From contig CALWPD010000004.1 of the NCBI GenBank assembly GCA_944383335.1, positions 1 through 54,355 on the forward strand: a stretch of DNA of 54,355 nt. The letters run 5' to 3'. Of this stretch, positions 11,896 to 54,355 are shown one piece after another (positions within the stretch are counted from its first letter, which is position 1; each line of letters starts with the position of its first letter). The notes under the pieces are model-generated. The model saw nothing but the letters and a program-made list of their open reading frames with translations, searched no databases and was not told where the DNA came from. The stretch is from an uncultured Clostridia bacterium. GTDB lineage: Bacteria; Bacillota; Clostridia; Christensenellales; UBA1242. Made by a program: the position numbers and the translations under genes.

Positions 11896-12138
11896 AAAAA
11901 AATATTCGTATAAAGTTTGACCATACGAGTATTTTTCGAAGGTAATTCTCAGAGCGACGGTTTGTTGAGATCCTTCGTCAGCCGTCAAGTAGAGGCCGTT
12001 CTCAGGATGACAAGAAAGTGCCGTCAGGGAAGTCGTTCTCAGGATGACTTTTTTCGTCGTTCTGAGCGTCAGCGAAGCACCTCAACTACTTCGTCATTCT
12101 GAGACTGGCTTACAAAGCGTCGACCTACGAAGAATCTC
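11896..12138. repeat. Mosaic array A of GTCA/CGTC-type palindromic (REP-like) repeats plus a 40-bp palindrome
   Basis: Units of the form GTCATT/CCTGAG-loop-CGAAGA/GATCTC: minus strand 11927-11958 (degenerate), 11967-12011 and a partial unit ending 12048; plus strand 12056-12083 and 12093-12138. Palindrome at 11896-11936. The same unit types recur at 54094-54355. Confidence 0.85.
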
Positions 12139-12170
12139 AATAAAAGTCGTGAATTTCACCCCCAAAGTCA

Positions 12171-12227
12171 AAAAAATTACAAATTTTTTAAAAAATTTTG
12201 TTAAAACGCTTGGCAAGACTAGGGGGG
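12171..12227 (+). repeat. Degenerate copy of the poly-G promoter module at 30641-30708
   Basis: 50/59 identical by hand alignment to 30641-30699 (...TTGTTAAAACGCTTGGCAAGACTAGGGGGG vs ...TTGTTAAAATACTTGACAAGACTAGGGGGG). Confidence 0.85.
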
Positions 12228-12304
12228 CAAAAAGCGTGCGTTTGTTTATATCCTACTCACACTTAATATAATTTATGAATAATATAATTTGTTGAGGAGG
12301 ATAG

Positions 12305-13321
12305 ATGAAAAAATTTAGTATTTTACTGATTGCATTGCTTTTATGTGTAACTGCAACACTATATGCGTGTGGTGATCCAAAAAATGATGAATATGTAACA
12401 CTTCGTGTAAATGAAGTAACTCACAGCATATTTTATGCCCCATTATATGTAGCGATTAACAATGGCTACTTTGAACAAGAAGGCTTAAAGATAGAATTAT
12501 CTAATGGCGGTGGTGCAGACAAATCAATGACTGCAATACTTTCAGGTGATGCAGATATTGGACTAATGGGTCCAGAAGCGGCTATATATGTAACAGAAGG
12601 TGGTGCAAATGACAAACCTGTGGTGTTTGGACAGCTGACAAAGAGAGATGGTTCATTTATTGTTTCTAAAACTGCAATTCATGATTTTACAGTTGCTGAC
12701 CTTGTGGGAAAGGAGATCATTGGCGGAAGAAAAGGTGGAGTGCCTGCCATGACACTTGAATATGTTATTAAAGAGGTTGGCTACACAGTTGGAACTGGTG
12801 GAAATCAGGTAAACTTAAGGACTGATGTGGCCTTTGATTTGACAGCCAGTGTATTTGATTCAACAGATGCAGATTTTTGTACGCTTTTTGAACCAACCGC
12901 AAGTGAACTTTGTGCAGAGCGTGGGTATCACATAGTTGCATCAGTGGGCGAGGTTAGCGGAGAAGTGCCATACACTGCTTTTATGGCAAAAAGAGGCTAC
13001 ATTAACGATAATCCATTGACAGTTGAAAGGTTTTTGAGAGCAGTTTATCGTGGATATAGATTTTTACTCACAGCGGATGTTGATGACATTGCCGAAAGTT
13101 TAAAGCCATCATTTGAGGGAGTGTCTGAAGCAAGCATAATAACTTCAATTCAAAGTTATATTAATTGTGATGCGTGGGTTAATAGTCCTGCAATGACCGA
13201 AACAGCTTTTGATAGACTTCAAGACATTATGATTTCTGCTGGAGAACTGGATCAAAAGGTAGAATTTTCAAGTGTTGTTGATAACACTATTGCCAATAGA
13301 GTTTATGCATATTTTGCATAA
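12305..13321 (+). CDS. NitT/TauT (SsuA/THI5-like) ABC transporter substrate-binding lipoprotein
   Basis: Lipobox LYAC and 'EVTHSIFYAPLYVA...GYF..EGL.IEL..GGGADK'. Confidence 0.9.
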   Translation: MKKFSILLIALLLCVTATLYACGDPKNDEYVTLRVNEVTHSIFYAPLYVAINNGYFEQEGLKIELSNGGGADKSMTAILSGDADIGLMGPEAAIYVTEGGANDKPVVFGQLTKRDGSFIVSKTAIHDFTVADLVGKEIIGGRKGGVPAMTLEYVIKEVGYTVGTGGNQVNLRTDVAFDLTASVFDSTDADFCTLFEPTASELCAERGYHIVASVGEVSGEVPYTAFMAKRGYINDNPLTVERFLRAVYRGYRFLLTADVDDIAESLKPSFEGVSEASIITSIQSYINCDAWVNSPAMTETAFDRLQDIMISAGELDQKVEFSSVVDNTIANRVYAYFA

Positions 13322-13334
13322 GAAAAAAATTTTT

Positions 13335-13363
13335 AACACTCGCATATTTTTGCGAGTGTTTTT
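13335..13363 (+). terminator. Intrinsic terminator/stabilising hairpin after the SBP gene
   Basis: AACACTCGCA-TATTTT-TGCGAGTGTT-TTT. Confidence 0.7.
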
Positions 13364-13424
13364 GTATATGTTTTTAACATTTTTTGGATAATTCAAGTAC
13401 AATGATTTGAGGAGGTGAAAATAA

Positions 13425-14189
13425 TTGGAAAATTATTTACAATTAAAAGATATTTCACTTTCATATCACACAAAAGAAGGTGAGGTACTTGCACTATGTG
13501 GCATAAATTTTAACGTGGAAAAAAATGAGTTTGTGAGTATTGTGGGACCAAGTGGCTGTGGAAAGACAACTATACTTTCACTGATTGCTGGGCTTTTAAA
13601 ATCCACCAAAGGTGAGGTTTTGCTTGATGGAGAAAAAATCTCCAAAGATACAAACATAGGATACATGTTTCAAAGGGATAATTTGTTTCCATGGCGAACG
13701 ATATATAAAAATGTGTGTATAGGTCTTGAAATAAAGCATAAAAAAAAGGATCAACAAAGTTTACAACATGTTGAAGACCTTTTAAAAAAATATGGTCTAT
13801 ATGAGTTTAGAAATAGTTATCCAAGTCAACTGTCAGGAGGCATGCGTCAGCGTGCAGCGCTTATTCGTACGCTTTGTTTAAAACCCAAAATTTTGCTTTT
13901 AGATGAACCTTTTTCGGCACTTGATTACCAAACAAAACTCAGCGTTTGTGATGATGTTCATTCCATAATTACGAAAGAAAAACAAACGGCAATTTTGGTT
14001 ACGCACGACATATCTGAAGCCATTTCAGTTTCTGATAGGGTAATTGTGCTTTCCAAAAGGCCAGCCAAAGTAAAAAGTATACAAACGATAGATTTGAAAA
14101 ACATAGAATCGCCATTAAAAAGGCGTGAAAGTCCAAAATTTTCAAAGTATTTTGATTTAATTTACAGGGAGCTTGGCAGTGAAAAATAA
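13425..14189 (+). CDS. NitT/TauT ABC transporter ATP-binding protein
   Basis: GPSGCGKT, LSGGMRQR, LLDEPFSALD, VTHD. Confidence 0.93.
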   Translation: MENYLQLKDISLSYHTKEGEVLALCGINFNVEKNEFVSIVGPSGCGKTTILSLIAGLLKSTKGEVLLDGEKISKDTNIGYMFQRDNLFPWRTIYKNVCIGLEIKHKKKDQQSLQHVEDLLKKYGLYEFRNSYPSQLSGGMRQRAALIRTLCLKPKILLLDEPFSALDYQTKLSVCDDVHSIITKEKQTAILVTHDISEAISVSDRVIVLSKRPAKVKSIQTIDLKNIESPLKRRESPKFSKYFDLIYRELGSEK

Positions 14190-14997
14190 GAAAAAAATCA
14201 TTAACTATTCTAAAGAACATCAAAAATATTTAAAGAAAATTAAAGTTGATAAATTCACAACATTGATTTCACAAGTTTTGTTACTTGTTGCTATTGTTGG
14301 ACTTTGGGAACTCTTAACACACTTGAAAGTTTTGGATGCATTCTTTTTGAGTTCTCCTTCAAGGATGATTAGTGAACTTATAGATCTATTTAAAAGTGGT
14401 ACACTGTTTTATCATATAGGAATAACTCTTTATGAAACATTAATTGGTTTTGCTATCGCCACAATACTTGGAACTCTTATTGCCATAATTCTTTGGTGGA
14501 GTAGAAAACTAAGAAAGATTTTAGAACCATATATCGTAATTTTAAATGCACTGCCTAAAATAGCGCTTGGTCCAGTTATTATAATTTGGGTTGGAGCGGG
14601 CACTTCAGCAATAATAACTATGTGTATTTTAATATGTGTAGTCATTACAACATTATCAATGCTTTCTGCATTTTTAGAATGCGATGAGGATAAAATTGCA
14701 CTTTTGCGGTCTATGGGAGCAAACAAATTTCAGATACTCATAAAACTTGTTATTCCAAATGCTTTAACAGAATTCGTTTCAGTGCTAAAAATAAATGTTG
14801 GTATGAGTTGGGTTGGAACAATAATGGGTGAATACTTAGTTAGCAAGGCGGGACTTGGTTACTTAATTGTTTATGGTGGACAGGTTTTTCAACTCGATTT
14901 AGTAATGGCAAGCACGCTAGTACTTTGTATTCTTGCTTGCATCATGTATCTTTTTGTTGGTATTTTGGAAAAAAAGGTTAGGAAACATAAGGAATAA
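14173..14997 (+). CDS. NitT/TauT ABC transporter permease
   Basis: Multiple TMs, 'LNALPKIALGP', EAA-like loop 'LLRSMGANKFQ', 'GLGYLI'. Confidence 0.9.
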   Translation: MAVKNKKKIINYSKEHQKYLKKIKVDKFTTLISQVLLLVAIVGLWELLTHLKVLDAFFLSSPSRMISELIDLFKSGTLFYHIGITLYETLIGFAIATILGTLIAIILWWSRKLRKILEPYIVILNALPKIALGPVIIIWVGAGTSAIITMCILICVVITTLSMLSAFLECDEDKIALLRSMGANKFQILIKLVIPNALTEFVSVLKINVGMSWVGTIMGEYLVSKAGLGYLIVYGGQVFQLDLVMASTLVLCILACIMYLFVGILEKKVRKHKE

Positions 14998-15948
14998 GAT
15001 AAGATAAGCACCAAATATACCAATAACAGGATAAAAGTATTTTATTAAAAAATCAAACTTAACAAAAGAACATACGGCACATAAAACAACTGTAAAAATA
15101 GAATTTAAAATTTTATATTTAAAATTAAAAAATGATTTTACAGTAATAGTTGTGCTTATGAGTGTCGTTATTATTGCAAACTCAATTAAAACTGCATATA
15201 GTATATAAAGCAAATTATGACTTTGAGCGAGCGACAGCATTGGTATGCTGTCGCTTATTGTTTCTGGATTAGATAACCCAGCAAAAATCATAACCGTCAT
15301 TATCACACATAAAATGACAGATGTCCAAAAACTTATTTGTTTACATTGTTTATCTGTTAGTCTAAATGCAGATGATGATATAACAAAATAACTTAAAAAT
15401 ACATTTCTTGTTACATATGTAATGGAATTGTAGGGCAGAAGGATAATGTTAGAAAGGATAGTGTTATGAAGTCCATCAAAGTTAGAGAAACAAATTATGC
15501 AAATAATAATAATGGTAATTGGAATTGTAATCATACAAATAATATTTAAATATTTTAAATTTTTATTAATTAAAAAAAACAAAGAAAAAATAACTATAAT
15601 TATAAATAATATTTCATAAAAAACTGAGGAGATTTCGAGAGACTCTCTTAATCCACTAATCATAGTGGAAGAGATTATAACAAATGAGATAAATGTAAAA
15701 AATTTTATTAATTTATTATTTTTTTTAAATATTATATAATTTAATTGATTAGTATTTTTTATATCGTTTTTTGCACCTATTATTAAAAGTTTGTATATGC
15801 AAAAATAAAATCCAAAAAAAATAATAGGCAAACTCAAGAATGAATAATAGCCAAATATTGTGAAAAATGTTGTAATTTCTTTGCCACTCGCAAAGCCTGC
15901 TCCAATAATTGTCCCTAAAATTAAGAGTGTAATTTTTAAGCATCTCAT
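14917..15948 (-). CDS. YkvI-family membrane protein
   Basis: N-terminal 'GTIIGAGFASGKEI..FF..FG' and C-terminal 'F..LI..FYP.IG..G' signatures. Confidence 0.8.
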   Translation of the reverse strand: MRCLKITLLILGTIIGAGFASGKEITTFFTIFGYYSFLSLPIIFFGFYFCIYKLLIIGAKNDIKNTNQLNYIIFKKNNKLIKFFTFISFVIISSTMISGLRESLEISSVFYEILFIIIVIFSLFFLINKNLKYLNIICMITIPITIIIICIICFSNFDGLHNTILSNIILLPYNSITYVTRNVFLSYFVISSSAFRLTDKQCKQISFWTSVILCVIMTVMIFAGLSNPETISDSIPMLSLAQSHNLLYILYAVLIEFAIITTLISTTITVKSFFNFKYKILNSIFTVVLCAVCSFVKFDFLIKYFYPVIGIFGAYLILFLMFPNLFFQNTNKKIHDASKNTKY

Positions 15949-16014
15949 AGAATATATTTATTTATTAAAAGTAAAAATTATAATAAAAAAGTATAATTAA
16001 TATAAAATAATAAT

Positions 16015-16623
16015 ATGAATTCAAAAGTAGTGAGCATATTTTTATTAATTATACTGTTTGCATTTTGTTTTTCAAGTGTTATACCTTATCCAAATTTTGT
16101 CAATGACAATTTCTTGCTTGCAAAGGACCAACAGACCATAAATGACAAATATGAAAAAGAAGAGCATATTGTCGAAGATAATTCTGCCGAAGTTGAAGTT
16201 CTTTCATATGATTGGTTTGATTTTATGGATGAACATTTCACAAAATATGAAACGGTTAGAGTTATTGATATTTGGAGTGAAACGGAATATTATGTTCAGC
16301 GTTTTGGTGGGTACAATCATGCAGATGTTCAAACAATAGATGTTGAAAATACAGAAATATTCAAGAAAATTTATGGAGGTGAATGGTCATGGGCACGCAG
16401 ACCTGTTTGGGTTGAAATAGATGGACAATTTTTTGCAGGTTCAACTAATGGTATGCCGCACGGGTTTTCAATTTTGGACAATGGAGAAGGTGGGCATACA
16501 TGCATACATTTTTTAAATAGCAAAACGCATGGTACAAAAAGGGTTGATGAAAAACATCAAGAATGTGTTAGTATCGCATCACAAAATAAGGCACTCTTAA
16601 ATGAGTACCTTTTTAAAAAATAA
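16015..16623 (+). CDS. Secreted protein with a clostridial cell-wall-associated domain (possibly L,D-transpeptidase-like)
   Basis: Signal peptide, then 'GGYNHADV...IYGGEWSWARRPV...GSTNGMPH...GHTCIHF.NSKTH' with a His/Cys pair. Confidence 0.6.
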   Translation: MNSKVVSIFLLIILFAFCFSSVIPYPNFVNDNFLLAKDQQTINDKYEKEEHIVEDNSAEVEVLSYDWFDFMDEHFTKYETVRVIDIWSETEYYVQRFGGYNHADVQTIDVENTEIFKKIYGGEWSWARRPVWVEIDGQFFAGSTNGMPHGFSILDNGEGGHTCIHFLNSKTHGTKRVDEKHQECVSIASQNKALLNEYLFKK

Positions 16624-16625
16624 CT

Positions 16626-18350: not shown

Positions 18351-18358
18351 ATCTTCTC

Positions 18359-19876: not shown

Positions 19877-20012
19877 TTTATCTCCACTTTTGAAATATGA
19901 TATCACATTATATCGTAACTAGTCAAATATATATAAAAATAATGTAATTAATCAAAGGGGTTGAAATATAACTTGTCCTATGTTAAACTATTATAAACAC
20001 CAAGGAGAAAAT

Positions 20013-21743: not shown

Positions 21744-21814
21744 AAAAACTTTTTGACAAAGTGTTTGTCGATATTGTACTATATGTAAGAAAGGTTTTAC
21801 TTAGAAGAGGGCAT

Positions 21815-23988: not shown

Positions 23989-23999
23989 TAAAATTTTTG

Positions 24000-29624: not shown

Positions 29625-30520
29625 TGGGAATATTTAAAAAAATTTCACAAGCACTAAAAAAAACAAAGGAAGCTTTAGCAAGGAAATTAGATGCTTTACT
29701 TTCTGGTGGTGAGATTAATGATGACTTTTATGAGGACTTAACGGACATTTTAATTTCTTCTGATATTGGCTTTGAGTGTAGTGAAGAAATTGTCGATAAA
29801 CTACGCTTGTATGCAAGAAAAAATAAAATTAGAACGTCAAATGAAGTAAAAAATGCTTTAAAAGCTATCTTGATTGAAATTATGGAACAAGCACCACAGG
29901 TTGAAATTAAATTCCCTGCAATAATTACAGTTGTTGGTGTCAACGGAGTCGGAAAGACCACAACTATTGGTAAACTTGCGAAATATTTTAAAAAGCAGAA
30001 TAAAGAAGTTACACTTGTCGCTGGTGATACATTTCGTGCAGCTGCAAGCGAACAACTAACAGAGTGGGCAAATAGAAACAAGGTGCGTATAGTTAAACAT
30101 GAAGAAGGCACCGATGCCGCTGCTGTTGTATTCGATGGTGTTTCAAGTGCTAAAGCGAAAAAAACTGATGTGCTTATAATTGATACAGCGGGAAGACTTC
30201 AAACAAAAATCAATTTAATGGAAGAACTTAAAAAAATAGACAAAGTTATAGACAAAGAATATCCAGAGGCAAATAAATATACATTTATCGTCTTGGACGC
30301 TACCACTGGACAAAACGCACTTAGTCAGATTAAAAATTTTAATGAATATGTAAAAATTGATGGTATTATATTGACAAAACTTGATGGAACGGCAAAAGGC
30401 GGAGTGGTATTTGCTATTGCAAAAGAACTTGAACTTCCTGTCGAGTTTGTTGGAACAGGTGAAACTATTGAAGATATTGATACCTTCAATGCAACTGAAT
30501 TTGTTGATAATATCATTTAG
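29624..30520 (+). CDS. ftsY: Signal recognition particle receptor FtsY
   Basis: GVNGVGKTTT, DTFRAAA, DTAGRLQ, TKLDGTAKGG. Confidence 0.98.
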   Translation: MGIFKKISQALKKTKEALARKLDALLSGGEINDDFYEDLTDILISSDIGFECSEEIVDKLRLYARKNKIRTSNEVKNALKAILIEIMEQAPQVEIKFPAIITVVGVNGVGKTTTIGKLAKYFKKQNKEVTLVAGDTFRAAASEQLTEWANRNKVRIVKHEEGTDAAAVVFDGVSSAKAKKTDVLIIDTAGRLQTKINLMEELKKIDKVIDKEYPEANKYTFIVLDATTGQNALSQIKNFNEYVKIDGIILTKLDGTAKGGVVFAIAKELELPVEFVGTGETIEDIDTFNATEFVDNII

Positions 30521-30536
30521 AATAGTTTTTAATACA

Positions 30537-30576
30537 AAATACACACATTTGATGCACGCTTGTGTGTATTTTTTTT
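30537..30576 (+). terminator. Terminator of the plsX-ftsY operon
   Basis: AAATACACACA...TGTGTGTATTT followed by a T-run. Confidence 0.75.
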
Positions 30577-30602
30577 ACGCAATTTTACATATTTTTACAA
30601 AT

Positions 30603-30629
30603 TTCGACACCGTTCGACACCGTTCGACA
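30603..30629 (-). promoter_or_regulatory. Three tandem perfect Spo0A boxes (TGTCGAA on the minus strand), 10-bp period
   Basis: TTCGACA-ccg-TTCGACA-ccg-TTCGACA. The 0A-box consensus is TGNCGAA. Confidence 0.7.
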
Positions 30630-30681
30630 CAGTTAAATATAAAAAATCACCAAACTTTTCAAAAAAATCTTGTTAAAATAC

Positions 30682-30714
30682 TTGACAAGACTAGGGGGGG
30701 GGGGGGGGTAAACT
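30682..30714 (+). promoter_or_regulatory. sigmaA promoter with a G15 homopolymer in the spacer (phase-variable candidate)
   Basis: TTGACA (30682-87), AGACTA, G15 (30694-30708), TAAACT (30709-14), then AGGAG SD and ATG 30732. Confidence 0.85.
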
Positions 30715-30731
30715 ATTTTTAGGAGTAAAAA

Positions 30732-32555
30732 ATGAAGAAAAAAGGTAAGTTGTTTTTAAGTTTATGTACACTACTTTTCAGTTTGGGAGTAATGTGCTTT
30801 GGAGTGTACAGTGCTGTACAAGTACAATTCAATGTAAACGGTAGTATAAACTATGTCGCACCAGATGCAGAATTTAACACTGCAATATACACGTCAGCAA
30901 TGCTAAGTTCAGAGGATTTAATAAAGAGTAGTGCTGATAATTACAAAACTTTAGGCATAGGGAATATACCATTACCCCTAGCCAAAGATGAAAATGGTGA
31001 GCCATATATTTACACCACACAGGCTTCATATCCAGAAAATGAGGGAGAGCAACCTGAGTACAGTTATGCAGAGTTTAATGATATAAACTTAGATTTTAAC
31101 GATTCAAATTGTAGGATATATTACATAGTAATAAACATTAAACCAACCGAAATTATGGATAATTATACAGTACAAGCAACAATAGAAAATAATACACCAA
31201 CAGGGAATAACTTAGGACATTATGAAACAAACACTGCACTAACTTTCACCGAGGCCAATGTAGGACAAAATGTAGTGATTGCATTTTGGGTAAAAGATTC
31301 ATCACAAGAGATACTAGCCGCCAACTTGGATATTACAATCACATTAACAAATGTTCAAGCGAGCGTAAATGTGGAGCAGATAACAGTTGGGAAGACTCCA
31401 GTATCCGGAACACTAACTTTAACCAAAGACACGGCAGTGAAACTTCCAACCACAAATATCAAAATTCAGCCAAATGCTAATCAAGAAAATAAAAGGACAG
31501 AGATAACACTTAATCTAAAGTCATCACTACCTAATTACGCTCGAATGTTTGTAAACTACAATAAAAGTACAAATACAGATATCAAAGTAAATGCATCATC
31601 ACTATACCTAAAAGATAGTGGAGTTTACAAGATATATGTAGATAACTACTCTAGTTCTGCAGTTGATTTGGATGATTTAAACATTTCAATCCTATTTGAT
31701 GTACAAACAGAGTTATTACACTATGACAATGATAACCAATATTATTATGTAGAAATGGGAACCCAAATGCGGGATGGTGAGACTAAAAATGAGTATTTGA
31801 AATGGAAATTAGTTGGAGTAGGAGACGGGGGTTATGATACCTTTGATAAATTTACAGATTTTGATTCTGCAACTGGTAGACTGGGGGCATTTGTTTTAGA
31901 GAGCTATATAGATGTGAATAGTCCCGACGGGTCGGGGAGAAAATTGAATGAGGTTGCATTCGCTAATTATTATAATAATATGTCTACGCATTTAGAAGAA
32001 GAGTGGGTAGGATATCAACAATCAGCCAATGATTATGGACAAAGTACAGTTGCAAGATATTTGAATGGAGTGGATGTATATAAAGGCTCAATAAGTGGTG
32101 ATAATATTTTCATACCAGAGCAAACTATTAATACATTGGTATCAACATATGCTAGAGAACCTTCAACTCCATCTAAGCCTGATCCTTCTTCACATTATTC
32201 CAATATGTATACTGATTTTAATATAGATATAGAACACGATTTGGTGTATCAATTAATAGAAGTAAGACAGACATATGAAATATGTAATGAAAACGGAGCT
32301 TATTATCCACCAGTATACGTGGGAATTGTTGATAACTATTTTTGGCTTTTAAGTTACAAAAATGTATCTACTTTTTTTGATAATGACAAGCAAAGAATGT
32401 GGCATTCAACAGATTATTGGTTAAGTTCTCCTGCTGGTGGTTCCGATTATAGTGAACAACTAGTTGATTCAAATGGACAACTTTATGAGGATGGATATGA
32501 TGCTTCATCAATTTTAACAGTTCGTCCTGCGTTTTGCATGCCATTACAAAAATAG
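30732..32555 (+). CDS. Secreted/surface protein with a C-terminal DUF6273-like domain
   Basis: Signal-like N-terminus (MKKKGKLFLSLC...FGVYSA) and a beta-rich stalk. C-terminal 'YVEMG...LKWK...Y..STV..YLN...FWLLS...YWLSSP...V..NG...VRPAF' pattern. Confidence 0.75.
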   Translation: MKKKGKLFLSLCTLLFSLGVMCFGVYSAVQVQFNVNGSINYVAPDAEFNTAIYTSAMLSSEDLIKSSADNYKTLGIGNIPLPLAKDENGEPYIYTTQASYPENEGEQPEYSYAEFNDINLDFNDSNCRIYYIVINIKPTEIMDNYTVQATIENNTPTGNNLGHYETNTALTFTEANVGQNVVIAFWVKDSSQEILAANLDITITLTNVQASVNVEQITVGKTPVSGTLTLTKDTAVKLPTTNIKIQPNANQENKRTEITLNLKSSLPNYARMFVNYNKSTNTDIKVNASSLYLKDSGVYKIYVDNYSSSAVDLDDLNISILFDVQTELLHYDNDNQYYYVEMGTQMRDGETKNEYLKWKLVGVGDGGYDTFDKFTDFDSATGRLGAFVLESYIDVNSPDGSGRKLNEVAFANYYNNMSTHLEEEWVGYQQSANDYGQSTVARYLNGVDVYKGSISGDNIFIPEQTINTLVSTYAREPSTPSKPDPSSHYSNMYTDFNIDIEHDLVYQLIEVRQTYEICNENGAYYPPVYVGIVDNYFWLLSYKNVSTFFDNDKQRMWHSTDYWLSSPAGGSDYSEQLVDSNGQLYEDGYDASSILTVRPAFCMPLQK

Positions 32556-41797: not shown

Positions 41798-41831
41798 ACA
41801 TAGTTTACTTTAATTCTTCATACAATTTAGT

Positions 41832-44055: not shown

Positions 44056-44101
44056 TACATATTTGTTTGTATTTTGCAGATATTAATTAAAAGAGGTATT
44101 T

Positions 44102-44713: not shown

Positions 44714-44766
44714 ACTTGTTAAAATTTGGGTTGTGTGCTATACTTTAATCAAGGAGAGTATGTATT

Positions 44767-46086: not shown

Positions 46087-46087
46087 T

Positions 46088-46810: not shown

Positions 46811-46874
46811 AAATTATATAGACAAAATTATTGTTTTATGATAGAATTCACGTACATTTTATGGAGATAGAAGT

Positions 46875-47216
46875 ATGAAAAAAATATATTTTTTTGTTTT
46901 GACTTTGATAACAACTGCTTTCGTTATTGGCCTTGCACTTCTTAAAGTCAATGAAGCATGTTCAAATCAATTATTCTCAATTCCAGCAAACGTTCAACCA
47001 TATGTTGATTATGCGGTTGATTATGGTGCTATGACTCTTTTGTGCTTGTTTGCTTTTGGTGGACTTGCTGGGAAGATAATTAAGTTTATAATAATAATTT
47101 TAATTGTGTTTGCAATCATTATATTTATTATTGCAACAACCGTGCCTGAATGGATTAGCGGACTTTTTGGTGGCGGTGATGCTGTAATAAAATTGTTTAC
47201 AAATATGCTTATGTAA
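46875..47216 (+). CDS. Hypothetical membrane protein
   Basis: Three hydrophobic segments, with its own TAGACA-17-TAGAAT promoter, GGAG SD and terminator. Confidence 0.7.
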   Translation: MKKIYFFVLTLITTAFVIGLALLKVNEACSNQLFSIPANVQPYVDYAVDYGAMTLLCLFAFGGLAGKIIKFIIIILIVFAIIIFIIATTVPEWISGLFGGGDAVIKLFTNMLM

Positions 47217-47257
47217 AAAACTGCATATGCGGTTTTTTATTTTTAAAAAGGAAATTT

Positions 47258-49774
47258 ATGGAAAAACTTTTAGTAATAGATGGTAATAGTCTTGTGAATA
47301 GAGCATTTTATGCTTTGCCACTTTTAACAAATAAAGACGGAGAATATTCAAACGCTGTTTATGGCTTTGTTAATATTTTAGTTAAATGTATATCGGAAAT
47401 AAAGCCAGAATATATTTGTGTTGCTTTTGATCATTCAAGGCACACGTTTAGAACTGATATGTATGCAGAATATAAAGGGACAAGAAAAGATATGCCTTCT
47501 GAACTTAAAAGTCAAATGCCACTTTTAAAATCCCTTTTGAATTTGATGAATATTAAAATTTTTGAAGTCGCAAATGTTGAGGCGGATGATATTATTGGTA
47601 CTGTGGTTAAACATAGCGGTGTAAAGAATATTATAATCTCAGGTGATAGAGATGTTTTGCAACTTATTGATGGAAATACAGAAGTTTGGCTTACAAAAAA
47701 GGGAATTTCAGATGTAGAAAAGATAAATTTGGAGAATATTAAGGATGAGTTTGGAATTAGTCCAAGCCAAATTATAGACTTAAAAGCACTAATGGGTGAT
47801 AGTTCTGACAATATCCCTGGCGTTGCTGGAATAGGCTCGGTTACGGCCACGTCATTATTGAAACAGTACGTAACACTAGATAACATATATGCCAATATAG
47901 ACAAAATAACGGGTAAACTAAACGAAAAGCTTGCAGTAGGGAAAAATAATGCATATCTTTCATACAAACTTGCAACAATAAACACAAATTGTGATTTAGA
48001 TGTAAATATCCAACATTTTAAATATGATTTTCCTTTTAATGCAAAAGTTAAAGAATTTTTTGAAAAGTATCAATTTAGGTCGCTTCTTAGAAGGCAAGAA
48101 TTATTTTCGGAAAATGCTAACAATTTGCAATCTTCAGTCCGGAAAATAAAAGAGAATCGTATTGAATTAAAAGATGAAAACCATTTAAAAGAAATTTTAA
48201 ATGGAAAAATAGATTATTTAGCCTTTGATTTTCTAAAAGATATTGAGTTTGCGATAAATGATGAAGCAGTTTATTTTTTGTCATTGCAAGGAAATCTTTT
48301 TTCAACCATTGACGAGAGTGTTGTTTTGAAATATTTGAAACCCATTATTACTGATGAAAATATAATAAAAATAACATATGATTTAAAAGAGCATATGCAT
48401 AAAAATGATTTATTTTTAAACATCAAAGGAGAAGTTTTTGATATCAGTATTGCTCTTTATCTTATTCATGCAGGAGAAAAAATAGGCAAGGATATTATAA
48501 CGCAAGAATTTGGACTTTTGAGACAGGATTTGTTAAAACAAATGCAAAATTTAGGATTAATGTTTGTATATAATAATATTGAAATACCTTTAACATATGT
48601 GCTTTATAAAATGGAAAAGAATGGATTTTATATTAATTGCAAATATTTAACGGAATTAAATGAAAAATATAAAAACGAATTAAGTTTAATTCAATCACAA
48701 ATCTATGGTTATGCTAGTAAAGAGTTTAATTTAAATTCACCAAAACAAGTAGCGAGTATACTTTTTGATGAGCTGAAACTAAGCGATTATAACAATAAAA
48801 AACATTCAACAAGTAGTGAACATTTAAATTTACTTGTTGATAAACATCCTATTGTTTCTTTATTTATGAAATATCGAAAAATCCAAAAATTAGTTAGTGG
48901 ATATTTGGAGCCTTATACAAAGCTTGTTACTGAAAAAGGTGAATGCATTCACACTATATTTAATCAAACTCTAACCGCAACAGGAAGACTTTCTTCCAGT
49001 GAGCCTAATTTACAAAATTTACCGATAAGAGAAGAAGACGGAAGGAATCTTCGCAGACTTTTTATTTCAAGATTTCAAGATGGATGTATTGTCTCAGCAG
49101 ATTATAATCAAATAGAGCTTAGACTTTTAGCATCTTTTTCGAATGATGAGCATTTGATTGATGCATATTTAAATGGGGAAGATATCCACAGAGCTACTGC
49201 CGCAAGAATATTTGGGAAAGCATTGTGTGAAGTTACACAAAGTGAAAGGACATCTGCAAAGGCTGTCAATTTTGGAATTGTGTACGGAATCAGCCCATTT
49301 GGTTTATCAAATCAACTTGGTATATCTACAAAGGAAGCGAAAATTTTTATGGATAAATATCATTTCACTTATCCAAATGTTGCATCATATATGCAAAAAA
49401 ATATAGACTCAGCAAGAGCAAGCGGTATGAGTAGGACTATGTATGGTAGAATAAGGAAAATAAATGAGATACATTCTTTAAATAAAAATATTCAACAATT
49501 TGGCGAAAGGGTAGCAATGAATATGCCACTTCAAGGTAGTGCATCTGATATTATAAAGCTTGCAATGATAAAAGTGGATAGGCAGTTGATGCAAAAAAAA
49601 CTTAAATCAAAATTGATTTTACAAATTCATGATGAATTAATTGTTGATTGTGCCAAAGATGAAGAACAAATTGTTAAAGATATATTGAAGTCATGTATGG
49701 AAAATGTTGCAAAACTTAAAGTACCACTCGTTGTAAGTATAGGTAGTGGCAAAACTTGGTATGATGCAAAATAA
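47258..49774 (+). CDS. polA: DNA polymerase I
   Basis: 5'-3' exo motifs (IDGNSL..RAFYA, EADD, GD.SDNIPG), motif A DYNQIELR, motif B KAVNFGIVYG, motif C QIHDEL. Confidence 0.97.
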   Translation: MEKLLVIDGNSLVNRAFYALPLLTNKDGEYSNAVYGFVNILVKCISEIKPEYICVAFDHSRHTFRTDMYAEYKGTRKDMPSELKSQMPLLKSLLNLMNIKIFEVANVEADDIIGTVVKHSGVKNIIISGDRDVLQLIDGNTEVWLTKKGISDVEKINLENIKDEFGISPSQIIDLKALMGDSSDNIPGVAGIGSVTATSLLKQYVTLDNIYANIDKITGKLNEKLAVGKNNAYLSYKLATINTNCDLDVNIQHFKYDFPFNAKVKEFFEKYQFRSLLRRQELFSENANNLQSSVRKIKENRIELKDENHLKEILNGKIDYLAFDFLKDIEFAINDEAVYFLSLQGNLFSTIDESVVLKYLKPIITDENIIKITYDLKEHMHKNDLFLNIKGEVFDISIALYLIHAGEKIGKDIITQEFGLLRQDLLKQMQNLGLMFVYNNIEIPLTYVLYKMEKNGFYINCKYLTELNEKYKNELSLIQSQIYGYASKEFNLNSPKQVASILFDELKLSDYNNKKHSTSSEHLNLLVDKHPIVSLFMKYRKIQKLVSGYLEPYTKLVTEKGECIHTIFNQTLTATGRLSSSEPNLQNLPIREEDGRNLRRLFISRFQDGCIVSADYNQIELRLLASFSNDEHLIDAYLNGEDIHRATAARIFGKALCEVTQSERTSAKAVNFGIVYGISPFGLSNQLGISTKEAKIFMDKYHFTYPNVASYMQKNIDSARASGMSRTMYGRIRKINEIHSLNKNIQQFGERVAMNMPLQGSASDIIKLAMIKVDRQLMQKKLKSKLILQIHDELIVDCAKDEEQIVKDILKSCMENVAKLKVPLVVSIGSGKTWYDAK

Positions 49775-49831
49775 AGTGTGTTTTTTGTTGATTAAATTGT
49801 TGATTGTTGGTAAAATAACCATGAGGAGGGA

Positions 49832-50314
49832 ATGATGAAAAAGAAAAGATTAATTACAAATATTGTTGCGGCTGGACTCGTTTTGGTGGCATTTGTTGGT
49901 GTTTTTCTTAATATGTGGACTTTATATACAAAAAATGAAATATTGAACCAAACGAAAGTTCTTGGAAATATCACTATTTTTGAGAACAATTTTCCAAACG
50001 ATGCCATATTTGGGACTATTTGTGAAGTTTTATTGATAATTGCACTTGTTTTGGGTTGTTTGTATGTAATTTGTTATCTTTTGGGCTTTGTTGGCATCGG
50101 TAAGATAAATTGGAACAAAGTTCTCAAACTTGTCGCTTTACTTGAAATTTTAATTGCTTTGGTTGCTATAATTTTTGGTATAATATTTTGCGTTTTACAA
50201 AGCAATATTAATGAATATTTATCAACAATATTGATTCCAAATATCGGTTTCTATATGCTGGCATTGGGCACGCTTTTATCGGGCGTAGTCGGAGTGTTTG
50301 CAAATAGGAAATAA
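49832..50314 (+). CDS. Hypothetical 4-TM membrane protein
   Basis: GAGGAGG SD and four hydrophobic segments. Confidence 0.7.
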   Translation: MMKKKRLITNIVAAGLVLVAFVGVFLNMWTLYTKNEILNQTKVLGNITIFENNFPNDAIFGTICEVLLIIALVLGCLYVICYLLGFVGIGKINWNKVLKLVALLEILIALVAIIFGIIFCVLQSNINEYLSTILIPNIGFYMLALGTLLSGVVGVFANRK

Positions 50315-50322
50315 TGATTCTT

Positions 50323-50352
50323 AAAAAACTTGCCTTAATGGCAAGTTTTTTT
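50323..50352. terminator. Bidirectional terminator
   Basis: AAAAAACTTGCC-TTAAT-GGCAAGTTTTTT between convergent genes. Confidence 0.85.
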
Positions 50353-51475
50353 AAAGTTTGGATATTTGTTTAATTGCTCGAATGAATTTTTCGCATTCTG
50401 TAAAAGTATTAAAATATGAAAGTGATGCTCGTACAACACCTTGTTCCAAAGTGTTTAAAAATCTATGTTTAAGTCCGGCGCAATGAAGTCCGCCTCGCAC
50501 ACATATGCCATATTTGTCATTTAATATTTGGCTCACTTCTGTGGAACCAAAATCTTTGATATTAAAACCAATTACTCCATAAGAATTATTGGGATGAGTG
50601 TAAACCTTCACACCATTTATTTGACTTAATTCAAAATTTAAATACGTTGACAAGTCGTCGATTTTTGAATTTATTTCGTCAAAATGACTTTTTACAAACT
50701 CAATTCCAGCTCCAAGTCCTAAAATGTTTGGTGTAGGCAAAGTACCACTTTCAAATCTTTCAAGCGATGTCGTTGGTTGATATAAATTTTCGCCCTCTGT
50801 ACCAGTTCCACCAAATCGAATCGGTTTTAAATCCACATTATTTGAGAAGCCTAGGACTCCAATACCTTGTGGTGAATAAAGTCCTTTGTGTGGAGCAAGC
50901 GCAAGCATATCTATGTTGCAATGTTTCATGTTGAGTTTTAAATGGCCAGCACTTTGTGCACCATCAACTAAAAACAATATATTTTTTTCTTTGCAGAATT
51001 TTCCAATGTTTTCAATATCTGCAATTTCTCCATCAACATTGGACATATTATTTACACAAACTAGATATGTGTTTTCTTTATAGTGCTTAGAAATGTCTTC
51101 CATGGTCAAAGTGCCGGGTTTTGAAGGTGTTGCGACAGAGATTTGTATATTATGTTTTTTTGCCATTTCAAATATAGGTCGTGTACTTGCATTATGATCA
51201 TTTGAAGTACAAATAATATGTCCACCGTTTTTTATTGTGCCCAAGATTGCAAGGTTAAGGGCGTCAGTGCAGTTTTCTGTATAAACTACATTATCGGCAT
51301 TGATGAAGTTTTTGATACATTCTCGGATAGATTCAACTTTATTTGCACACATCATGCTAAGTTTGTGCCCACTGCGTCCGGGGTTTGCACTGTACTTTGT
51401 TAATCCTTCTAAAACTGCGTTTATAACTTCCTTTGGCTTTACCATTGTGGTTGCACTGTTATCAAAATATATCAT
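50351..51475 (-). CDS. Class V PLP aminotransferase / cysteine desulfurase family protein
   Basis: YFDNSATT, NPGRSGH, DGAQSAG, HKGL..PQG.G, FESGT, VRGGLHCA. Confidence 0.92.
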   Translation of the reverse strand: MIYFDNSATTMVKPKEVINAVLEGLTKYSANPGRSGHKLSMMCANKVESIRECIKNFINADNVVYTENCTDALNLAILGTIKNGGHIICTSNDHNASTRPIFEMAKKHNIQISVATPSKPGTLTMEDISKHYKENTYLVCVNNMSNVDGEIADIENIGKFCKEKNILFLVDGAQSAGHLKLNMKHCNIDMLALAPHKGLYSPQGIGVLGFSNNVDLKPIRFGGTGTEGENLYQPTTSLERFESGTLPTPNILGLGAGIEFVKSHFDEINSKIDDLSTYLNFELSQINGVKVYTHPNNSYGVIGFNIKDFGSTEVSQILNDKYGICVRGGLHCAGLKHRFLNTLEQGVVRASLSYFNTFTECEKFIRAIKQISKL

Positions 51476-51527
51476 ATAGTAATATGATATGAAATAATAT
51501 CAAAAGTTGACTACAAAGGAGGATATA

Positions 51528-51788
51528 ATGGATTACTATATTGTAGTTTTTCGTGCAAGGTCGCATACAATTAATTTTGCAAACTTACTCAGTTCATATA
51601 AAGTTCAATGTCAAATAGTAAATACTCCACGAAAAGTCAATGTTTCATGCGGAATTTCTGTCAAATTTTCGCCAAAGGATCTAATAATTGTTGAGAAATT
51701 GTTGTCAAGGCGTAACTTTGATACTTTTGGTGGTATATATCATATTATGGGTATGGGAGATATGCAACGAGTGATAAGATTGAAATAA
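51528..51788 (+). CDS. DUF3343-family protein
   Basis: 'F...SH.......L', 'IVNTPR.V.VSCGIS.KF'. AGGAGG SD before ATG 51528. Divergent from the desulfurase gene. Confidence 0.8.
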   Translation: MDYYIVVFRARSHTINFANLLSSYKVQCQIVNTPRKVNVSCGISVKFSPKDLIIVEKLLSRRNFDTFGGIYHIMGMGDMQRVIRLK

Positions 51789-51842
51789 TTGACATGTTCC
51801 TGGTATTTTTGTATAATGTTCAGAAATATTAGGAGTAAAAAA

Positions 51843-53045
51843 ATGGCAGAATTATTGGCACCTGCGGGCACTTTTGAAAAAATGGAAACGGCATTTAGAT
51901 TTGGAGCCGATGCGGTTTATTTTGCGGGTAAAAAATTTGGACTTAGAGCTTTTGCTGGAAATTTCTCAGATAATGAAATTGAAGAAGCAACGCGCTATGC
52001 ACATAATATAGGCAAAAAAGTATATATAACAATAAATATTTTGGCCCACGAAAGCGACTTTAATGGATTAAAAGAATACTTGGATGAATTGGTTAAGTAC
52101 AAAGTTGATGCAGTCATTGTTTCAGATCTTGGCATTATTGAGTTTATTCGAAATTATGCACCTACACTTACAATTCATGTAAGCACTCAAGCTAATATAC
52201 TAAACAGTTATGCTATTAACTTTTTAGCCAAAATGGGTGTTAAACGCATAATTTTGGCTAGAGAACTATCCATTGATGAAATTAAACAAATTAAAGCCAA
52301 AATATCAAAAGATATAGAGCTTGAAGCATTTGTTCATGGTGCAATGTGTATTGCATATAGTGGTAGATGTTTGCTTTCAAACTATTTAACAGGGAGAGAT
52401 GCCAATCGTGGCGCTTGTGCTCAGGCTTGTAGGTGGGAGTACACAATCACTGAGAAATCTCGCAAAGGAGATCAGTATCCAATAGAAGAAGACAACAGAG
52501 GAACATATATCTTAAACTCAAAAGATTTAATGATGATTGAACATCTTTCCGAGCTTGAAAGCGCGGGCATAACAAGTTTTAAGATCGAAGGAAGAATGAA
52601 ATCTCCTTATTATGTAGCCAACGTTGTAAATGCATATAGGCGTGCATTGGATAAAGGGAAACTGAGTCATGAAGATCTAAACATGTTAAAGAATGAACTA
52701 CAAAAGTCAAGCCACAGGAAATACACTACTGGTTTTTACCTTGGTGCAAATGACAAAGAGTGTTTAAAATCTTCTTCGCCAATTCAGTCCTATGAATATA
52801 TGGCTTATGTTATAGGAGATAGTGATGGTGAGAAAACTCTTATTGAACAAAGAAATCGATTCAAAATAGGAGATGAACTTGAAGTCTTGTCGCCAACTGA
52901 TTGCTTTAACAAAATTATAAAATTGGAAAAGATGACTGATATAAATGGCTGTGATGTATTGGATGCAAAAATTGTTCAACAGAAATTATATATTTATACA
53001 GACTTGCCACTAGAAAAAGGTGATATATTAAGAAAAAAAATATAG
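51843..53045 (+). CDS. U32 family peptidase-like protein (probable tRNA hydroxylation, TrhP/YrrO-like)
   Basis: ELLAPAG, GADAVY, HVSTQAN, LARELS, HGAMCIAYSGRC...NRG.CAQ.CR, KIEGRMKS. Confidence 0.93.
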   Translation: MAELLAPAGTFEKMETAFRFGADAVYFAGKKFGLRAFAGNFSDNEIEEATRYAHNIGKKVYITINILAHESDFNGLKEYLDELVKYKVDAVIVSDLGIIEFIRNYAPTLTIHVSTQANILNSYAINFLAKMGVKRIILARELSIDEIKQIKAKISKDIELEAFVHGAMCIAYSGRCLLSNYLTGRDANRGACAQACRWEYTITEKSRKGDQYPIEEDNRGTYILNSKDLMMIEHLSELESAGITSFKIEGRMKSPYYVANVVNAYRRALDKGKLSHEDLNMLKNELQKSSHRKYTTGFYLGANDKECLKSSSPIQSYEYMAYVIGDSDGEKTLIEQRNRFKIGDELEVLSPTDCFNKIIKLEKMTDINGCDVLDAKIVQQKLYIYTDLPLEKGDILRKKI

Positions 53046-53062
53046 AATTTGAAAAAAAACCT

Positions 53063-53096
53063 AAAAAAATGCACCATCCAAGTGATGCATTTTTTT
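53063..53096. terminator. Bidirectional terminator
   Basis: AAAAAAATGCA...TGCATTTTTTT between the U32 gene and the tRNAs. Confidence 0.75.
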
Positions 53097-53099
53097 GAT

Positions 53100-53176
53100 T
53101 GGTGGGCTTGGAGGAATTCGAATCCCCGACCTTTGCCTTAGAAGGGCACTGCTCTATCCAACTGAGCTACAAACCC
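53100..53176 (-). tRNA. tRNA-Arg (anticodon UCU)
   Basis: Reverse complement GGGTTTGTAGCTCAGTTGGATAGAGCAGTGCCCTTCTAAGGCAAAGGTCGGGGATTCGAATTCCTCCAAGCCCACCA folds as a cloverleaf. CCA is encoded. Confidence 0.95.
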
Positions 53177-53189
53177 ATGTGGTGGATGG

Positions 53190-53263
53190 TGGAGCGGGTG
53201 AAGGGAATCGGACCCTCGCGACCAGCTTGGAAGGCTGGGACTCTACCACTGAGCTACACCCGC
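53190..53263 (-). tRNA. tRNA-Gly (anticodon UCC)
   Basis: Reverse complement GCGGGTGTAGCTCAGTGGTAGAGTCCCAGCCTTCCAAGCTGGTCGCGAGGGTCCGATTCCCTTCACCCGCTCCA folds as a cloverleaf. CCA is encoded. Confidence 0.95.
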
Positions 53264-53280
53264 ACATAAAAACATATAAC

Positions 53281-53309
53281 ATTTTAGCATAAGTAATATT
53301 TCTTGTCAA
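53281..53309 (-). promoter_or_regulatory. sigmaA promoter of the tRNA pair
   Basis: TTGACA-17-TAAAAT with an extended TG on the minus strand. Confidence 0.8.
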
Positions 53310-53361
53310 CGAATTTGTAAAAAATATTTACTTATGATTGTATGTGTGCTAATATCATAAC

Positions 53362-53691
53362 ATGACTAAGTTGTTTTCAAAAAATGATAATAGTTTTATT
53401 TGCGAAAATTGTCATACATTAGTAAATAAACTAGGTTACACATCACGAGATCATTGTTCAAGATGTTTATGTAGTAAACATGTTGATATTATGCCGGGTG
53501 ATAGAAAAAATGAATGCCGAGGGTTGATGGTTCCTATTTCTTGTACAATTTCTGCAAAAAAAGGTTATATCATTACTTACAAGTGTACAAAATGTGGGGC
53601 TGTCCATAACAATAAAGCAGCAAGTGATGATGATTTTAAAGTTATAATGTCCGTGATGAATGGTACATATGATAAAATGTTTATAAATTAA
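53362..53691 (+). CDS. RNHCP domain-containing protein
   Basis: 'F.CENC...V......RDHCSRCLCSKHVD..PGDR...C.GLM.P...C.KCG...N..A.DD'. Confidence 0.9.
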   Translation: MTKLFSKNDNSFICENCHTLVNKLGYTSRDHCSRCLCSKHVDIMPGDRKNECRGLMVPISCTISAKKGYIITYKCTKCGAVHNNKAASDDDFKVIMSVMNGTYDKMFIN

Positions 53692-53775
53692 GAAAAAGCG
53701 ACAAAATTCAAAAAATTATATATGTTCTATAATGTTACTTTAGTTATTGAAAGCGTGAATTTGTAATTTTGAACG

Positions 53776-54080
53776 TTTATTAGTTATTTCAAGTATTTTT
53801 TAGTTGTTATTGGGTATTTGCATATATTATGAGTATTTTTTAGATGTTTTAAGTTTATTTCAAGCTTTTTGAATATTTTTTAGTTTATTTAAGATTTTTT
53901 TTGTACTATTAATTTCTTTTTGTTCTTAATCAGTTATTCTTAAGATTATTGAGTAATTTTAAGTTTATTTGGTTTTTTATAAATTATCTAGTCATTCTTA
54001 TGATTATTAATTCTTTATTAAGTTTTTTTGATTATTTTAAGTACTTTTCAGTTATTTTAATCTTCTTTAGTCATTCCTAG
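53776..54080. repeat. Degenerate T-rich tandem tract, ~10-bp period (consensus ~AGTTATTTTA)
   Basis: Consecutive units such as agttatttca agtatttttt agttgttatt ... agatgtttta agtttatttc ... agttattctt ... agtaatttta agtttatttg ... agtcattctt ... agtacttttc agttatttta. No ORF in the track. Confidence 0.65.
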
Positions 54081-54093
54081 CAAATCTTAAACT

Positions 54094-54355
54094 GTCATTC
54101 TGAGCGAAGCGAAGAATCTCTAACCATTGAGATCCTTCGTCAGCCGTCAAGGAAGCAATTCTCAGGATGACACACCACACATTGTCATTCTGAGACGGAC
54201 CAGAAGAGCGTCGACCAACGAAGAATCTCATGGGGCCCTTCGCATACTCTCAGGGCGACTAAAATATCGTGGTTCCAAAAAATACTCGTATAAAGTTTGA
54301 CTATACGAGTATTTTTCGTATATACTAAACATGACACATGAGGCCCTTCGCATGG
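54094..54355. repeat. Mosaic array B of GTCA/CGTC-type palindromic repeats, running off the window
   Basis: Plus 54094-54120 (GTCATTCTGAGCGAAGCGAAGAATCTC), minus 54129-54171, plus 54184-54229, minus 54232-54259, palindrome 54277-54316, and a further unit starting at ~54340. Confidence 0.88.

Follow-up and report, generated by a model that had tools for sequence, protein, structure and literature searches.

Parts of a putative phase-variable surface-protein family with poly-G promoter spacers in an uncultured gut Clostridia bacterium

Multigene families of phase-variable surface proteins are a textbook feature of pathogens and mycoplasmas. In Neisseria meningitidis, a G or C homopolymer between the −35 and −10 boxes of porA (poly-G) or of opc and fetA (poly-C) tunes or switches an outer-surface protein, and the vlp genes of mycoplasmas combine a conserved 5′ region and signal sequence with divergent external parts. 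For vlp of Mycoplasma hyorhinis, maa2 of M. arthritidis and vmm of M. mycoides, a homopolymer or repeat has been described in the −35/−10 spacer (PMC2268961), and Clostridioides difficile has invertible promoters, or invertons (PMC9286219). Here we analyze a 54,355-nt stretch of DNA (hereafter, the window), which is contig C4 of the draft genome G000 of an uncultured member of the gut Clostridia whose genome measures ∼1 Mb. We put at roughly 0.75 the probability that this window contains parts of a phase-variable multigene surface family whose genes are controlled by poly-G tracts. Our literature search returned no account of a phase-variable multigene surface family in these uncultured small-genome gut Clostridia. 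The mechanism would be a known one, of the vlp or porA kind, while the protein family and the lineage appear new to that scheme.

Like the mycoplasma vlp type, the system would be a surface multigene family in a small genome, in which a slippage-prone tract serving as promoter spacer sets the ON or OFF state (PMC2268961), and its layout of a conserved 5′ module followed by variable heads comes closest to the mycoplasma families. Unlike the vlp type, the tract is poly-G, not poly-A or TA, and the proteins contain no lipobox (a conserved cysteine lies inside a hydrophobic helix and is followed by GVYSA). The heads are folded leucine-rich-repeat (LRR) or C-lectin-like domains instead of tandem-repeat tails, the loci are dispersed instead of forming one cluster, and the host is a member of the Clostridia that uses the standard code. 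The genes porA, opc and fetA, in turn, are single ones with no 5′ cassette in common; the tracts described here exceed theirs in length, reaching G19, and the organism is of Gram-positive type. The promoters of other family members in four relatives (G010, G017, G007 and G009) resemble the invertons of Bacteroides and C. difficile; none was found in this genome. The LRR_5 repeats encoded at window positions 1-1185 and by four paralogs are like those of BspA-type LRR proteins, but these paralogs differ from other BspA-type proteins in carrying an N-terminal module specific to the genus.

A protein family behind a shared N-module and poly-G promoter

The draft G000 comprises 698,518 bp in 30 contigs with ∼32.5% GC and is 75% complete; genomes across the genus span ∼1.0-1.4 Mb. 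The window encodes one 607-aa member of the family in full (Table 1), and the first 45 residues, which we term the N-module, follow the consensus M.KK.KLF.SL..LCFSL.V.CFGVYSA..V.Y.VSG.I.Y. Across the whole genome, 18 open reading frames (ORFs) or fragments match a hidden Markov model (HMM) of the N-module at E ≤ 4.4e-8, with the next match at E 0.022. All 18 carry the common N-terminal export module that had been suggested as possible in a first-pass annotation of the window, made from the sequence alone. Because the end of contig C3 overlaps the ends of C1 and C11 by 77 nt and C22 overlaps both by 19 nt, we take these ORFs to represent ∼16 distinct genes. No Pfam or NCBIfam family was found for the N-module, which gave only sub-threshold matches to the LPXTG-family signal region, and no NCBIfam sorting signal reached the model cut-off in the family proteins. 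We infer that the family consists of exported surface proteins with a role in adhesion.

The heads behind this N-module vary. Among the 14 paralogs scanned, four have LRR_5 repeats above the Pfam cut-off (L005, L007, L010 and L011), two have DUF6273 above its cut-off of 23.5 bits (L009, 35.4 bits; L001, 26.3 bits), one has DUF6273 below it (L012, 20.2 bits), and the rest match no Pfam family above its cut-off. Interchangeable heads, as proposed earlier, are thus borne out, with LRR_5, DUF6273/C-type-lectin-like or other domains following one N-module. The lectin-like heads bring to mind the target proteins of diversity-generating retroelements in phages. No reverse transcriptase was found in the 75%-complete genome, and hence there is no sign that these heads are diversified by such an element.

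The border of the shared part is clearest in a comparison of the window gene with its paralog on C21. The first 45 residues of the two proteins differ only at residue 42 (I/V); identity is 54% up to ∼residue 240, and beyond this point the proteins are unrelated, the C21 head being an LRR. At the DNA level, 30650-30883 is 88-92% identical to C21, compared to 42% upstream and 40-65% downstream, so that the 5′ module has sharp borders. In a model of residues 1-330 (mean pLDDT 65; 75-93 over residues 34-209), residues 3-27 form a helix and the conserved motif that follows it is the first strand of a beta-sandwich, with strands from residue 34. No specific structural relative of this beta-sandwich was found, the best Z of 6.7 being within the background range. 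A resemblance between the N-part of the C10 paralog and the stalk of the 607-aa protein was considered and rejected, the BLASTP match not being significant.

The head of the window protein was modeled from residues 241-607 with a 37-sequence alignment (pLDDT 86, pTM 0.88). Residues ∼326-607 superimpose on residues 32-286 of 9qa6_A (VIA Z 13.9, rmsd 3.9, 201 aligned; Foldseek E 1.3e-4), and further structural matches include many C-type lectin domains at Z 5-7. The entry 9qa6_A is the IgA peptidase of Thomasclavelia ramosa, in which the matched N-terminal domain was called DUF6273 by the depositors (PMC12402451), and the DUF6273-like domains of phage receptor-binding proteins are described as resembling C-type lectin folds (PMC10743442). 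Unlike the T. ramosa enzyme, the window protein has no peptidase domain. It also aligns in its head with the DUF6273-bearing homologs P0011 and P0012, but it matches neither Pfam DUF6273 at E ≤ 0.1 nor any other Pfam family. The earlier description of the head as DUF6273-like or lectin-like is therefore supported by fold and homolog alignment and not by the Pfam threshold.

The G tracts in this genome are not due to chance. G/C runs of at least 8 nt number 13, compared to 0.6 expected from base composition, and have lengths of 8, 9, 10, 12, 12, 13, 14, 15, 15, 15, 15, 18 and 19 nt; A/T runs fall off smoothly to a maximum of 10 nt. The hexamer TTGACA lies no more than 14 nt upstream in 11 of the 14 G/C runs of at least 7 nt, and nothing around the G7 at C10:12683 resembles a promoter. 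Of the 13 long intergenic G tracts (G8-G19), ten are located upstream of a family N-module gene or its first codons, and the remaining three point at contig ends, at a distance of 32-66 nt. At eight loci in the genome the tract belongs to a longer module, in which an A/T-rich stretch precedes TTGTTAAAA(C/T)(G/A)CTTGACAA. The first-pass annotation, which had postulated a common promoter module, knew two of these copies. The upstream half of the module, TTGTTAAAAYRCTTGACAA, was found in at least 118 metagenome stretches, with a G tract in 0 of the 80 examined, and by itself it reads as a generic strong-promoter context.

A homopolymer of at least 8 nt separates recognizable −35 and −10 hexamers in the window and at 10 further loci. 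When the −10-like hexamer that immediately follows each tract is used, the window has a spacer of 21 nt, compared to 20 nt at C6 and C21:9664, 19 nt at C24, 18 nt at C22 and C14:67, and 15 nt at C3 and C13. The C12 spacer is 24 nt, as is that at C21:62, where the hexamer lies six bases past the tract, and C14:4468 has 22 nt using TAAAAT right after the tract or 27 nt using a later TATAAT. The overall range is 15-24 nt; for the module class, a tract of G10-G12 would give a 17-nt spacer, and for the window promoter G11 would do so. A consensus scan of 30400-30800 revealed no sigma-70-type promoter with 16-18 nt spacing, and because the assembled spacer is 21 nt, the window gene is predicted to be OFF in the assembled state. 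Most copies would likewise be off at their assembled lengths, and the two with an 18-nt spacer would be near-on.

Distribution in the genus and occupancy of the ftsY site

Loci in relatives were retrieved with a five-sequence N-module alignment. Every one of the 20 genomes in the genus contains the N-module family (1-19 matches per genome, E ≤ 1e-8), and outside the genus it occurs in one of 120 genomes sampled across the order, where it gave a single match at E 1e-10; the protein family thus appears genus-specific. The pattern TTGACA-N1-9-G≥9 occurs in 13 of the 19 genus relatives, and a reversed-pattern control found none in any of the 20 genomes. Of 54 sites with the forward pattern, at least 22 are located ≤300 nt upstream of the start of a same-strand family gene, among the matches listed (150 of 233), and several face contig ends. 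At the level of the order, TTGACA-N1-9-G≥10 was found in 15 of 201 genomes, including this one (control 0), which shows that poly-G spacers are more widely spread than the N-module family. Such spacers seem to be in broader use among these gut Clostridia, in which they would drive other genes. Four genomes from other families of the order (G098, G212, G023 and G087) each have several TTGACA-N1-9-G≥10 loci, and the N-module family was not found in them where searched.

Closely related copies of the module differ in tract length. The orthologs L181 and L182, from two metagenome-assembled genomes (MAGs), are 99.4% identical over 1577 nt, and the single gap in their alignment is G10 versus G12; the locus is one found in relatives and is not the window's own. 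The modules in L026 and L031, with tract lengths matching those of L181 and L182, probably come from the same two genomes. Within one MAG, two paralogs of 92% identity have G7 and G11.

Some relatives show a second kind of promoter. Directly upstream of the gene lies an invertible segment of 158 nt with ∼28-nt inverted repeats, seen in both orientations (L160 and L163). In two species, opposite orientations were found at 96.8% identity, with inverted-repeat pairs ∼127 nt apart. No recombinase was identified with the invertible promoters of the relatives, and a search for such a promoter gave 0 matches in this 75%-complete genome.

The site between ftsY and the pyruvate:ferredoxin oxidoreductase (PFOR) gene is occupied by a different family gene in each of G000, G010 and G009. 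In G000, ftsY is followed by tandem TTCGACA boxes (Table 1), the poly-G module, the DUF6273-type gene and then the convergent PFOR gene. In G010 and G009, three to four boxes are followed by a repetitive extragenic palindromic (REP) array and another family gene, which has an invertible promoter where this genome has poly-G. In G019, the boxes and a hairpin are present, the PFOR gene lies ∼190 nt past ftsY, and there is no family gene, so that the site is empty. Because the occupants differ across species and one site is empty, we regard the ftsY site as a hot spot for family genes, and this pattern points to gain, loss or replacement of family genes at one chromosomal site across species. The earlier proposal that cassettes are gained or lost at repeat-marked sites is upheld in its first part by the filled and empty ftsY sites, but the marking by REP arrays is not, there being none at the window's 30.7-kb cassette. 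In more distant species, another gene follows ftsY and is preceded by TTCGAC-containing sequence.

The TTCGACA (0A) boxes had been counted as part of the accessory spot at 30.6-32.6 kb. Since they are kept in G019 without a family gene and also occur beside other cassettes, they belong to the backbone and not to the cassette. The genome has a spo0A gene (Spo0A_C match of 140.6 bits at C3:3860-4168), and tandem heptamers near a promoter in a genome with spo0A are what would be expected of a Spo0A-type promoter. The heptamer is not enriched genome-wide (71 found versus 79 expected). A second tandem cluster of five units is located at C12:793-840, before a small gene with a helix-turn-helix-like motif.

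Proposed switching and competing explanations

In the explanation that we favor, each gene is a single-gene cassette with a portable 5′ module of ∼235 bp. The module starts with the A/T-rich region and TTGACA, continues through a long run of G to a −10-like box and a ribosome-binding site, and extends ∼45 codons into the gene. The protein part that it specifies has a positively charged beginning, then a hydrophobic helix and the strand that opens a beta-sandwich stalk. The module is joined to one of several unrelated ligand-binding heads, BspA-type LRR, DUF6273/C-type-lectin-like or others. Slipped-strand mispairing at replication would alter the length of the G tract and thereby bring the −35/−10 spacing in or out of 17 (±1) bp, affecting transcription, so that each gene would switch on and off randomly and independently and a population would display mixed surface coats of exposed, probably adhesive proteins. 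Homologous recombination within the conserved 5′ module would generate new combinations, as judged from the sharp borders of identity and from the different family genes that occupy one site across species. The slippage switching put forward in the first-pass annotation receives indirect support, in that the tract is the −35/−10 spacer and G length differs in near-identical orthologs; within-population variation was not seen, in assembled contigs only.

Several points weigh against this mechanism. Most assembled spacers, at 19-24 nt, are far from 17 nt, and the −10 box could be misassigned; ON/OFF calls are soft because short-read assembly does not give reliable lengths for long runs of G. No G tract is present in the assembled upstream DNA of six family genes (C1:49168, C2, C9, C11:7400, C16 and C28), although the G-rich spacer of C1:49168 is interrupted and resembles a decayed tract. 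The best ortholog pair, L181 and L182, comes from two GTDB species and not from one clone, and other family members, in G010, G017, G007 and G009, have an invertible promoter instead. No variation in tract length was seen within a sample: Logan contigs (assembled runs) list no indel at 30694-30708 and no piece from run X2 across it, and as contigs they are uninformative on tract heterogeneity and neither support nor refute switching. Loose ends at 30866 in runs X1 and X2 were considered as variants and rejected, as they derive from the C21-type paralog. Finally, where transcription begins, by which route the proteins are exported and that they lie on the surface are predictions.

The spacer lengths and the lack of visible variation within a sample are also what would be seen if the G tracts were fixed or slowly drifting promoter elements instead of reversible switches. 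The tract could then act as a spacer that keeps activity at a constant low level, a regulator site or a G-quadruplex former, with control residing elsewhere, in the TTCGACA boxes or in a promoter-like element with a palindrome in its spacer (P2), which indeed accompanies many modules. There is also a precedent in M. agalactiae, where a T homopolymer located upstream of the vpma promoter is described as having had no part in variation (PMC2268961). We nevertheless consider fixed elements unlikely. G10 versus G12 is the sole gap in 1577 nt of an ortholog pair, the 92%-identical paralogs differ by G7 versus G11, and tracts within this one genome span G8-G19. G/C runs of such length have been described as hypermutable in other bacteria (PMC8355987), and the decayed or interrupted tracts at C1:49168 and also in the modules of L020 and L025 are as expected of a lost switch.

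A different explanation concerns gain and loss: REP arrays and P2 may mark or mediate it, as recombination substrates or as targets of an unseen enzyme. Like REP, CGTC-tagged REP and Ssn-related motif (SRM) elements, the window's arrays are short, hairpin-prone, dispersed intergenic repeats in mixed orientation, with cores that begin GTCAT as in SRMs. The genome has 73 REP cores in 39 clusters. A core lies ≤700 nt upstream of 3 of 10 family genes compared to 18 of 529 other crude gene calls (Fisher p = 0.005), in a test that excluded family genes with <300 nt of assembled upstream DNA or unmatched starts. The contig-end copies on C3 and C22 also have a REP core, one REP unit is physically joined with the module inside a duplicated 136-nt unit that has four copies in the genome, and the arrays of G010 and G009 sit between boxes and family gene at the ftsY site. 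However, REP-carrying copies of the module are duplicates of one unit and thus not independent, and the enrichment near the family, although real, is modest and in part due to these copies. Most of the 39 clusters are not beside family genes, and the 30.7-kb cassette has no nearby REP core, the nearest listed being at 12093. No transposase or RAYT-like family was found among the window ORFs. Unlike SRMs, the repeats gave 0 matches to the published SRM search pattern (PMC11893778) on both strands of the whole genome (block-shuffled controls, mean 0.3), with a regular expression unchecked on a known positive. GIY-YIG was matched in a single ORF, of 599 aa, and the search of this 75%-complete genome turned up no small single-domain GIY-YIG (Ssn) gene. 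A role of REP and P2 in cassette turnover is therefore improbable in our view, and the arrays, once taken as special marks of cassettes, are a genome-wide repeat.

That the G tracts are sequencing or assembly artifacts, such as the poly-G read tails of two-color Illumina chemistry, is extremely improbable: although 6 of 14 runs lie within ∼130 nt of a contig end, the tracts are internal, with specific conserved sequence on both sides, they always separate TTGACA from a −10-like box, they are seen again at the equivalent position in MAGs of 13 other species of the genus from at least two submitters, and the reversed-pattern control gave 0 in all genomes.

Slippage-driven switching of a poly-G surface family can be extended to a broader model, which we hold only tentatively. 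The 5′ module would be a portable promoter, export and stalk-start unit that recombines with any head gene and thereby places new adhesin heads under stochastic control, and the type of switch, poly-G or inverton, would be exchangeable at one hot spot. With 10-20 independently switched genes, a reduced-genome lineage would achieve combinatorial surface variation of the mycoplasma kind, possibly since it lives attached to host cells or microbes. If switching is real, ∼1-2% of the genes of a ∼1-Mb genome are devoted to randomly varied LRR or lectin-like surface proteins, which points to strong and changing selection on the cell surface by host antibodies, phages or attachment partners. The G tracts and invertons are concrete loci at which strain-level heterogeneity could be read from metagenomic reads, and promoters with G9-G19 spacers are candidate tunable parts for Gram-positive anaerobes.

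Window edges, the 12.2-kb junction and neighboring genes

Most of the 46 window ORFs scanned are housekeeping genes, among them transketolase, pta-ackA, plsX, rnc, smc, ftsY, PFOR, rplM-rpsI, feoB, der and polA. The four accessory spots that the first-pass annotation had set off from this backbone are each real: the BspA gene at the left edge, the REP array and poly-G promoter at 11.9-12.2 kb (spot 2), the 30.6-32.6 kb region (spot 3) and the right edge (spot 4). So is the sequence said to link them, namely, 47 nt at 85% identity between spots 2 and 3, and 52 nt at 81% and 42 nt at 95% between spots 2 and 4. The annotation had also noted that no mobilizing enzyme is encoded in the window, and indeed no transposase, integrase or resolvase family was matched among the 46 ORFs (E ≤ 0.001).

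Table 1. Features of the window
Feature	Position	Strand	Evidence or remarks
3′ part of BspA-type LRR surface-protein gene, probable family member	1-1185	+	Pfam LRR_5 E 1.8e-53; 5′ end cut by contig start
P2 palindromic promoter-like element	11897-11950	+	TTGACC, ∼17-18 nt with TACGA..TCGTA-type palindrome, degenerate −10; 95% over 42 nt to 54277-54318
REP array, mixed orientation	11940-12150	.	cores GTCAT(T/C)CTGAG / CTCAG(G/A)ATGAC; four cores at 12001-12093; units match >30 other genome places
Decayed copy of poly-G promoter module	12150-12227	+	TTGGCA 12210-12215, G6 12222-12227
Three perfect tandem 10-nt units TTCGACAC(C/A)G	30603-30630	+	0A-box-like heptamer TTCGACA; none expected in 100 shuffles
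Poly-G promoter module	30641-30731	+	A/T-rich upstream part, TTGTTAAAA, −35 TTGACA (30682-30687), AGACTA, G15 (30694-30708), −10-like TAAACT (30709-30714), AGGAG, start codon
Family gene, 607 aa	30732-32555	+	N-module HMM E 4.7e-27
N-module, aa 1-45	30732-30866	+	HMM match
Beta-sandwich, aa ∼34-210, then second beta-sandwich	within 30732-32555	+	predicted structure
DUF6273/C-type-lectin-like head, aa ∼326-607	31707-32552	+	predicted fold
T-rich non-coding tract, 53% T, 19% GC, 10/20-nt periodicity	53695-54085	.	autocorrelation
REP array	54085-54270	.	three cores at 54094-54184; many genome matches
Second P2 copy, runs into contig end	54277-54355	+	match to C3

The promoter and N-terminus of the BspA gene lie off the assembled contig. 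Its LRR_5 score is 180.2 bits (cut-off 27.7), its residues 24-95 are 50% identical to the stretch right after the N-module of the LRR member on C13, and its first 70 aa are 77% identical to the C10 paralog, which is also cut by a contig end. By this paralogy, the gene likely belongs to the N-module family. No ortholog was found in the genus, where the best matches reach 56-63% over repeat segments. Next to it, positions 2539-5859 (+) encode a 1106-aa protein with Bact_surface_Ig-like and Big_13 domains, which lies outside the N-module family, and at 2387-2399 there is a two-mismatch look-alike of the module core.

The module copy at 12.2 kb had been viewed as a free-standing promoter, but a gene for an NMT1/THI5-type binding lipoprotein starts 77 nt after its G tract. 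Positions 12092-12227, one copy of the 136-nt unit, are 95.6% identical over 136 nt to C3:68200-68335, where G9 precedes a family gene. Upstream (700 nt) of the orthologous binding-protein gene, 0 of 11 relatives have a REP core or G run, and their upstream gene differs. Since the −35 is mutated to TTGGCA, only G6 is left and the junction is absent in relatives, we interpret this copy as a decayed remnant at a genome-specific junction.

In its general form, P2 reads TTGA(C/T)T, 17-18 nt with TACGA..TCGTA, and TATACT, with seven copies in the genome. Copies outside the window are at C3:67913, C6:29794, C19:86-161, C21:165-215 and C17:16894, and nearly all copies point at REP arrays, poly-G modules or contig ends. 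In relatives, P2 precedes family genes by 50-90 nt. The element may serve as a second promoter under the control of an operator, or it may form a weak hairpin that is bidirectional; the copy at 11897-11950, which follows the ABC ATPase gene, can likewise be taken for a weak hairpin rich in A/T.

Positions 54236-54355 are 90.9% identical over 121 nt to C3:67872-67991, a site ∼340 nt upstream of the G9 module and its family gene. Because of this match, the right edge is probably the start of the upstream region of another cassette, whose gene would be located beyond the contig end. The T-rich tract before it shows autocorrelation at lags of 20 (z = 6.0, versus 200 shuffles), 40 (z = 5.3) and 10 (z = 3.8). 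TRF detected no tandem array across the tract, only a 2.7-copy 10-nt piece at 54034-54060, and the rest of the genome contains no good match to the tract; curved DNA and the decayed remains of a short tandem array are possible readings of it.

Many contigs of G000 end inside or just past shared 5′ modules, REP arrays or G tracts (C1, C3, C10, C11, C12, C14, C21, C22, C24 and C27, and window positions 1 and 54355), and hence the family genes are under-assembled and their copy numbers are lower bounds. The shared modules would explain why the MAGs of this group break into contigs at family genes. A join of the C24 and C27 contig ends was considered and rejected, as an exact overlap is absent. 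Elsewhere on the window, genes for tRNA-Arg(TCT) and tRNA-Gly(TCC) are located at 53100-53263 (−), between a U32 peptidase gene and an RNHCP-domain gene.

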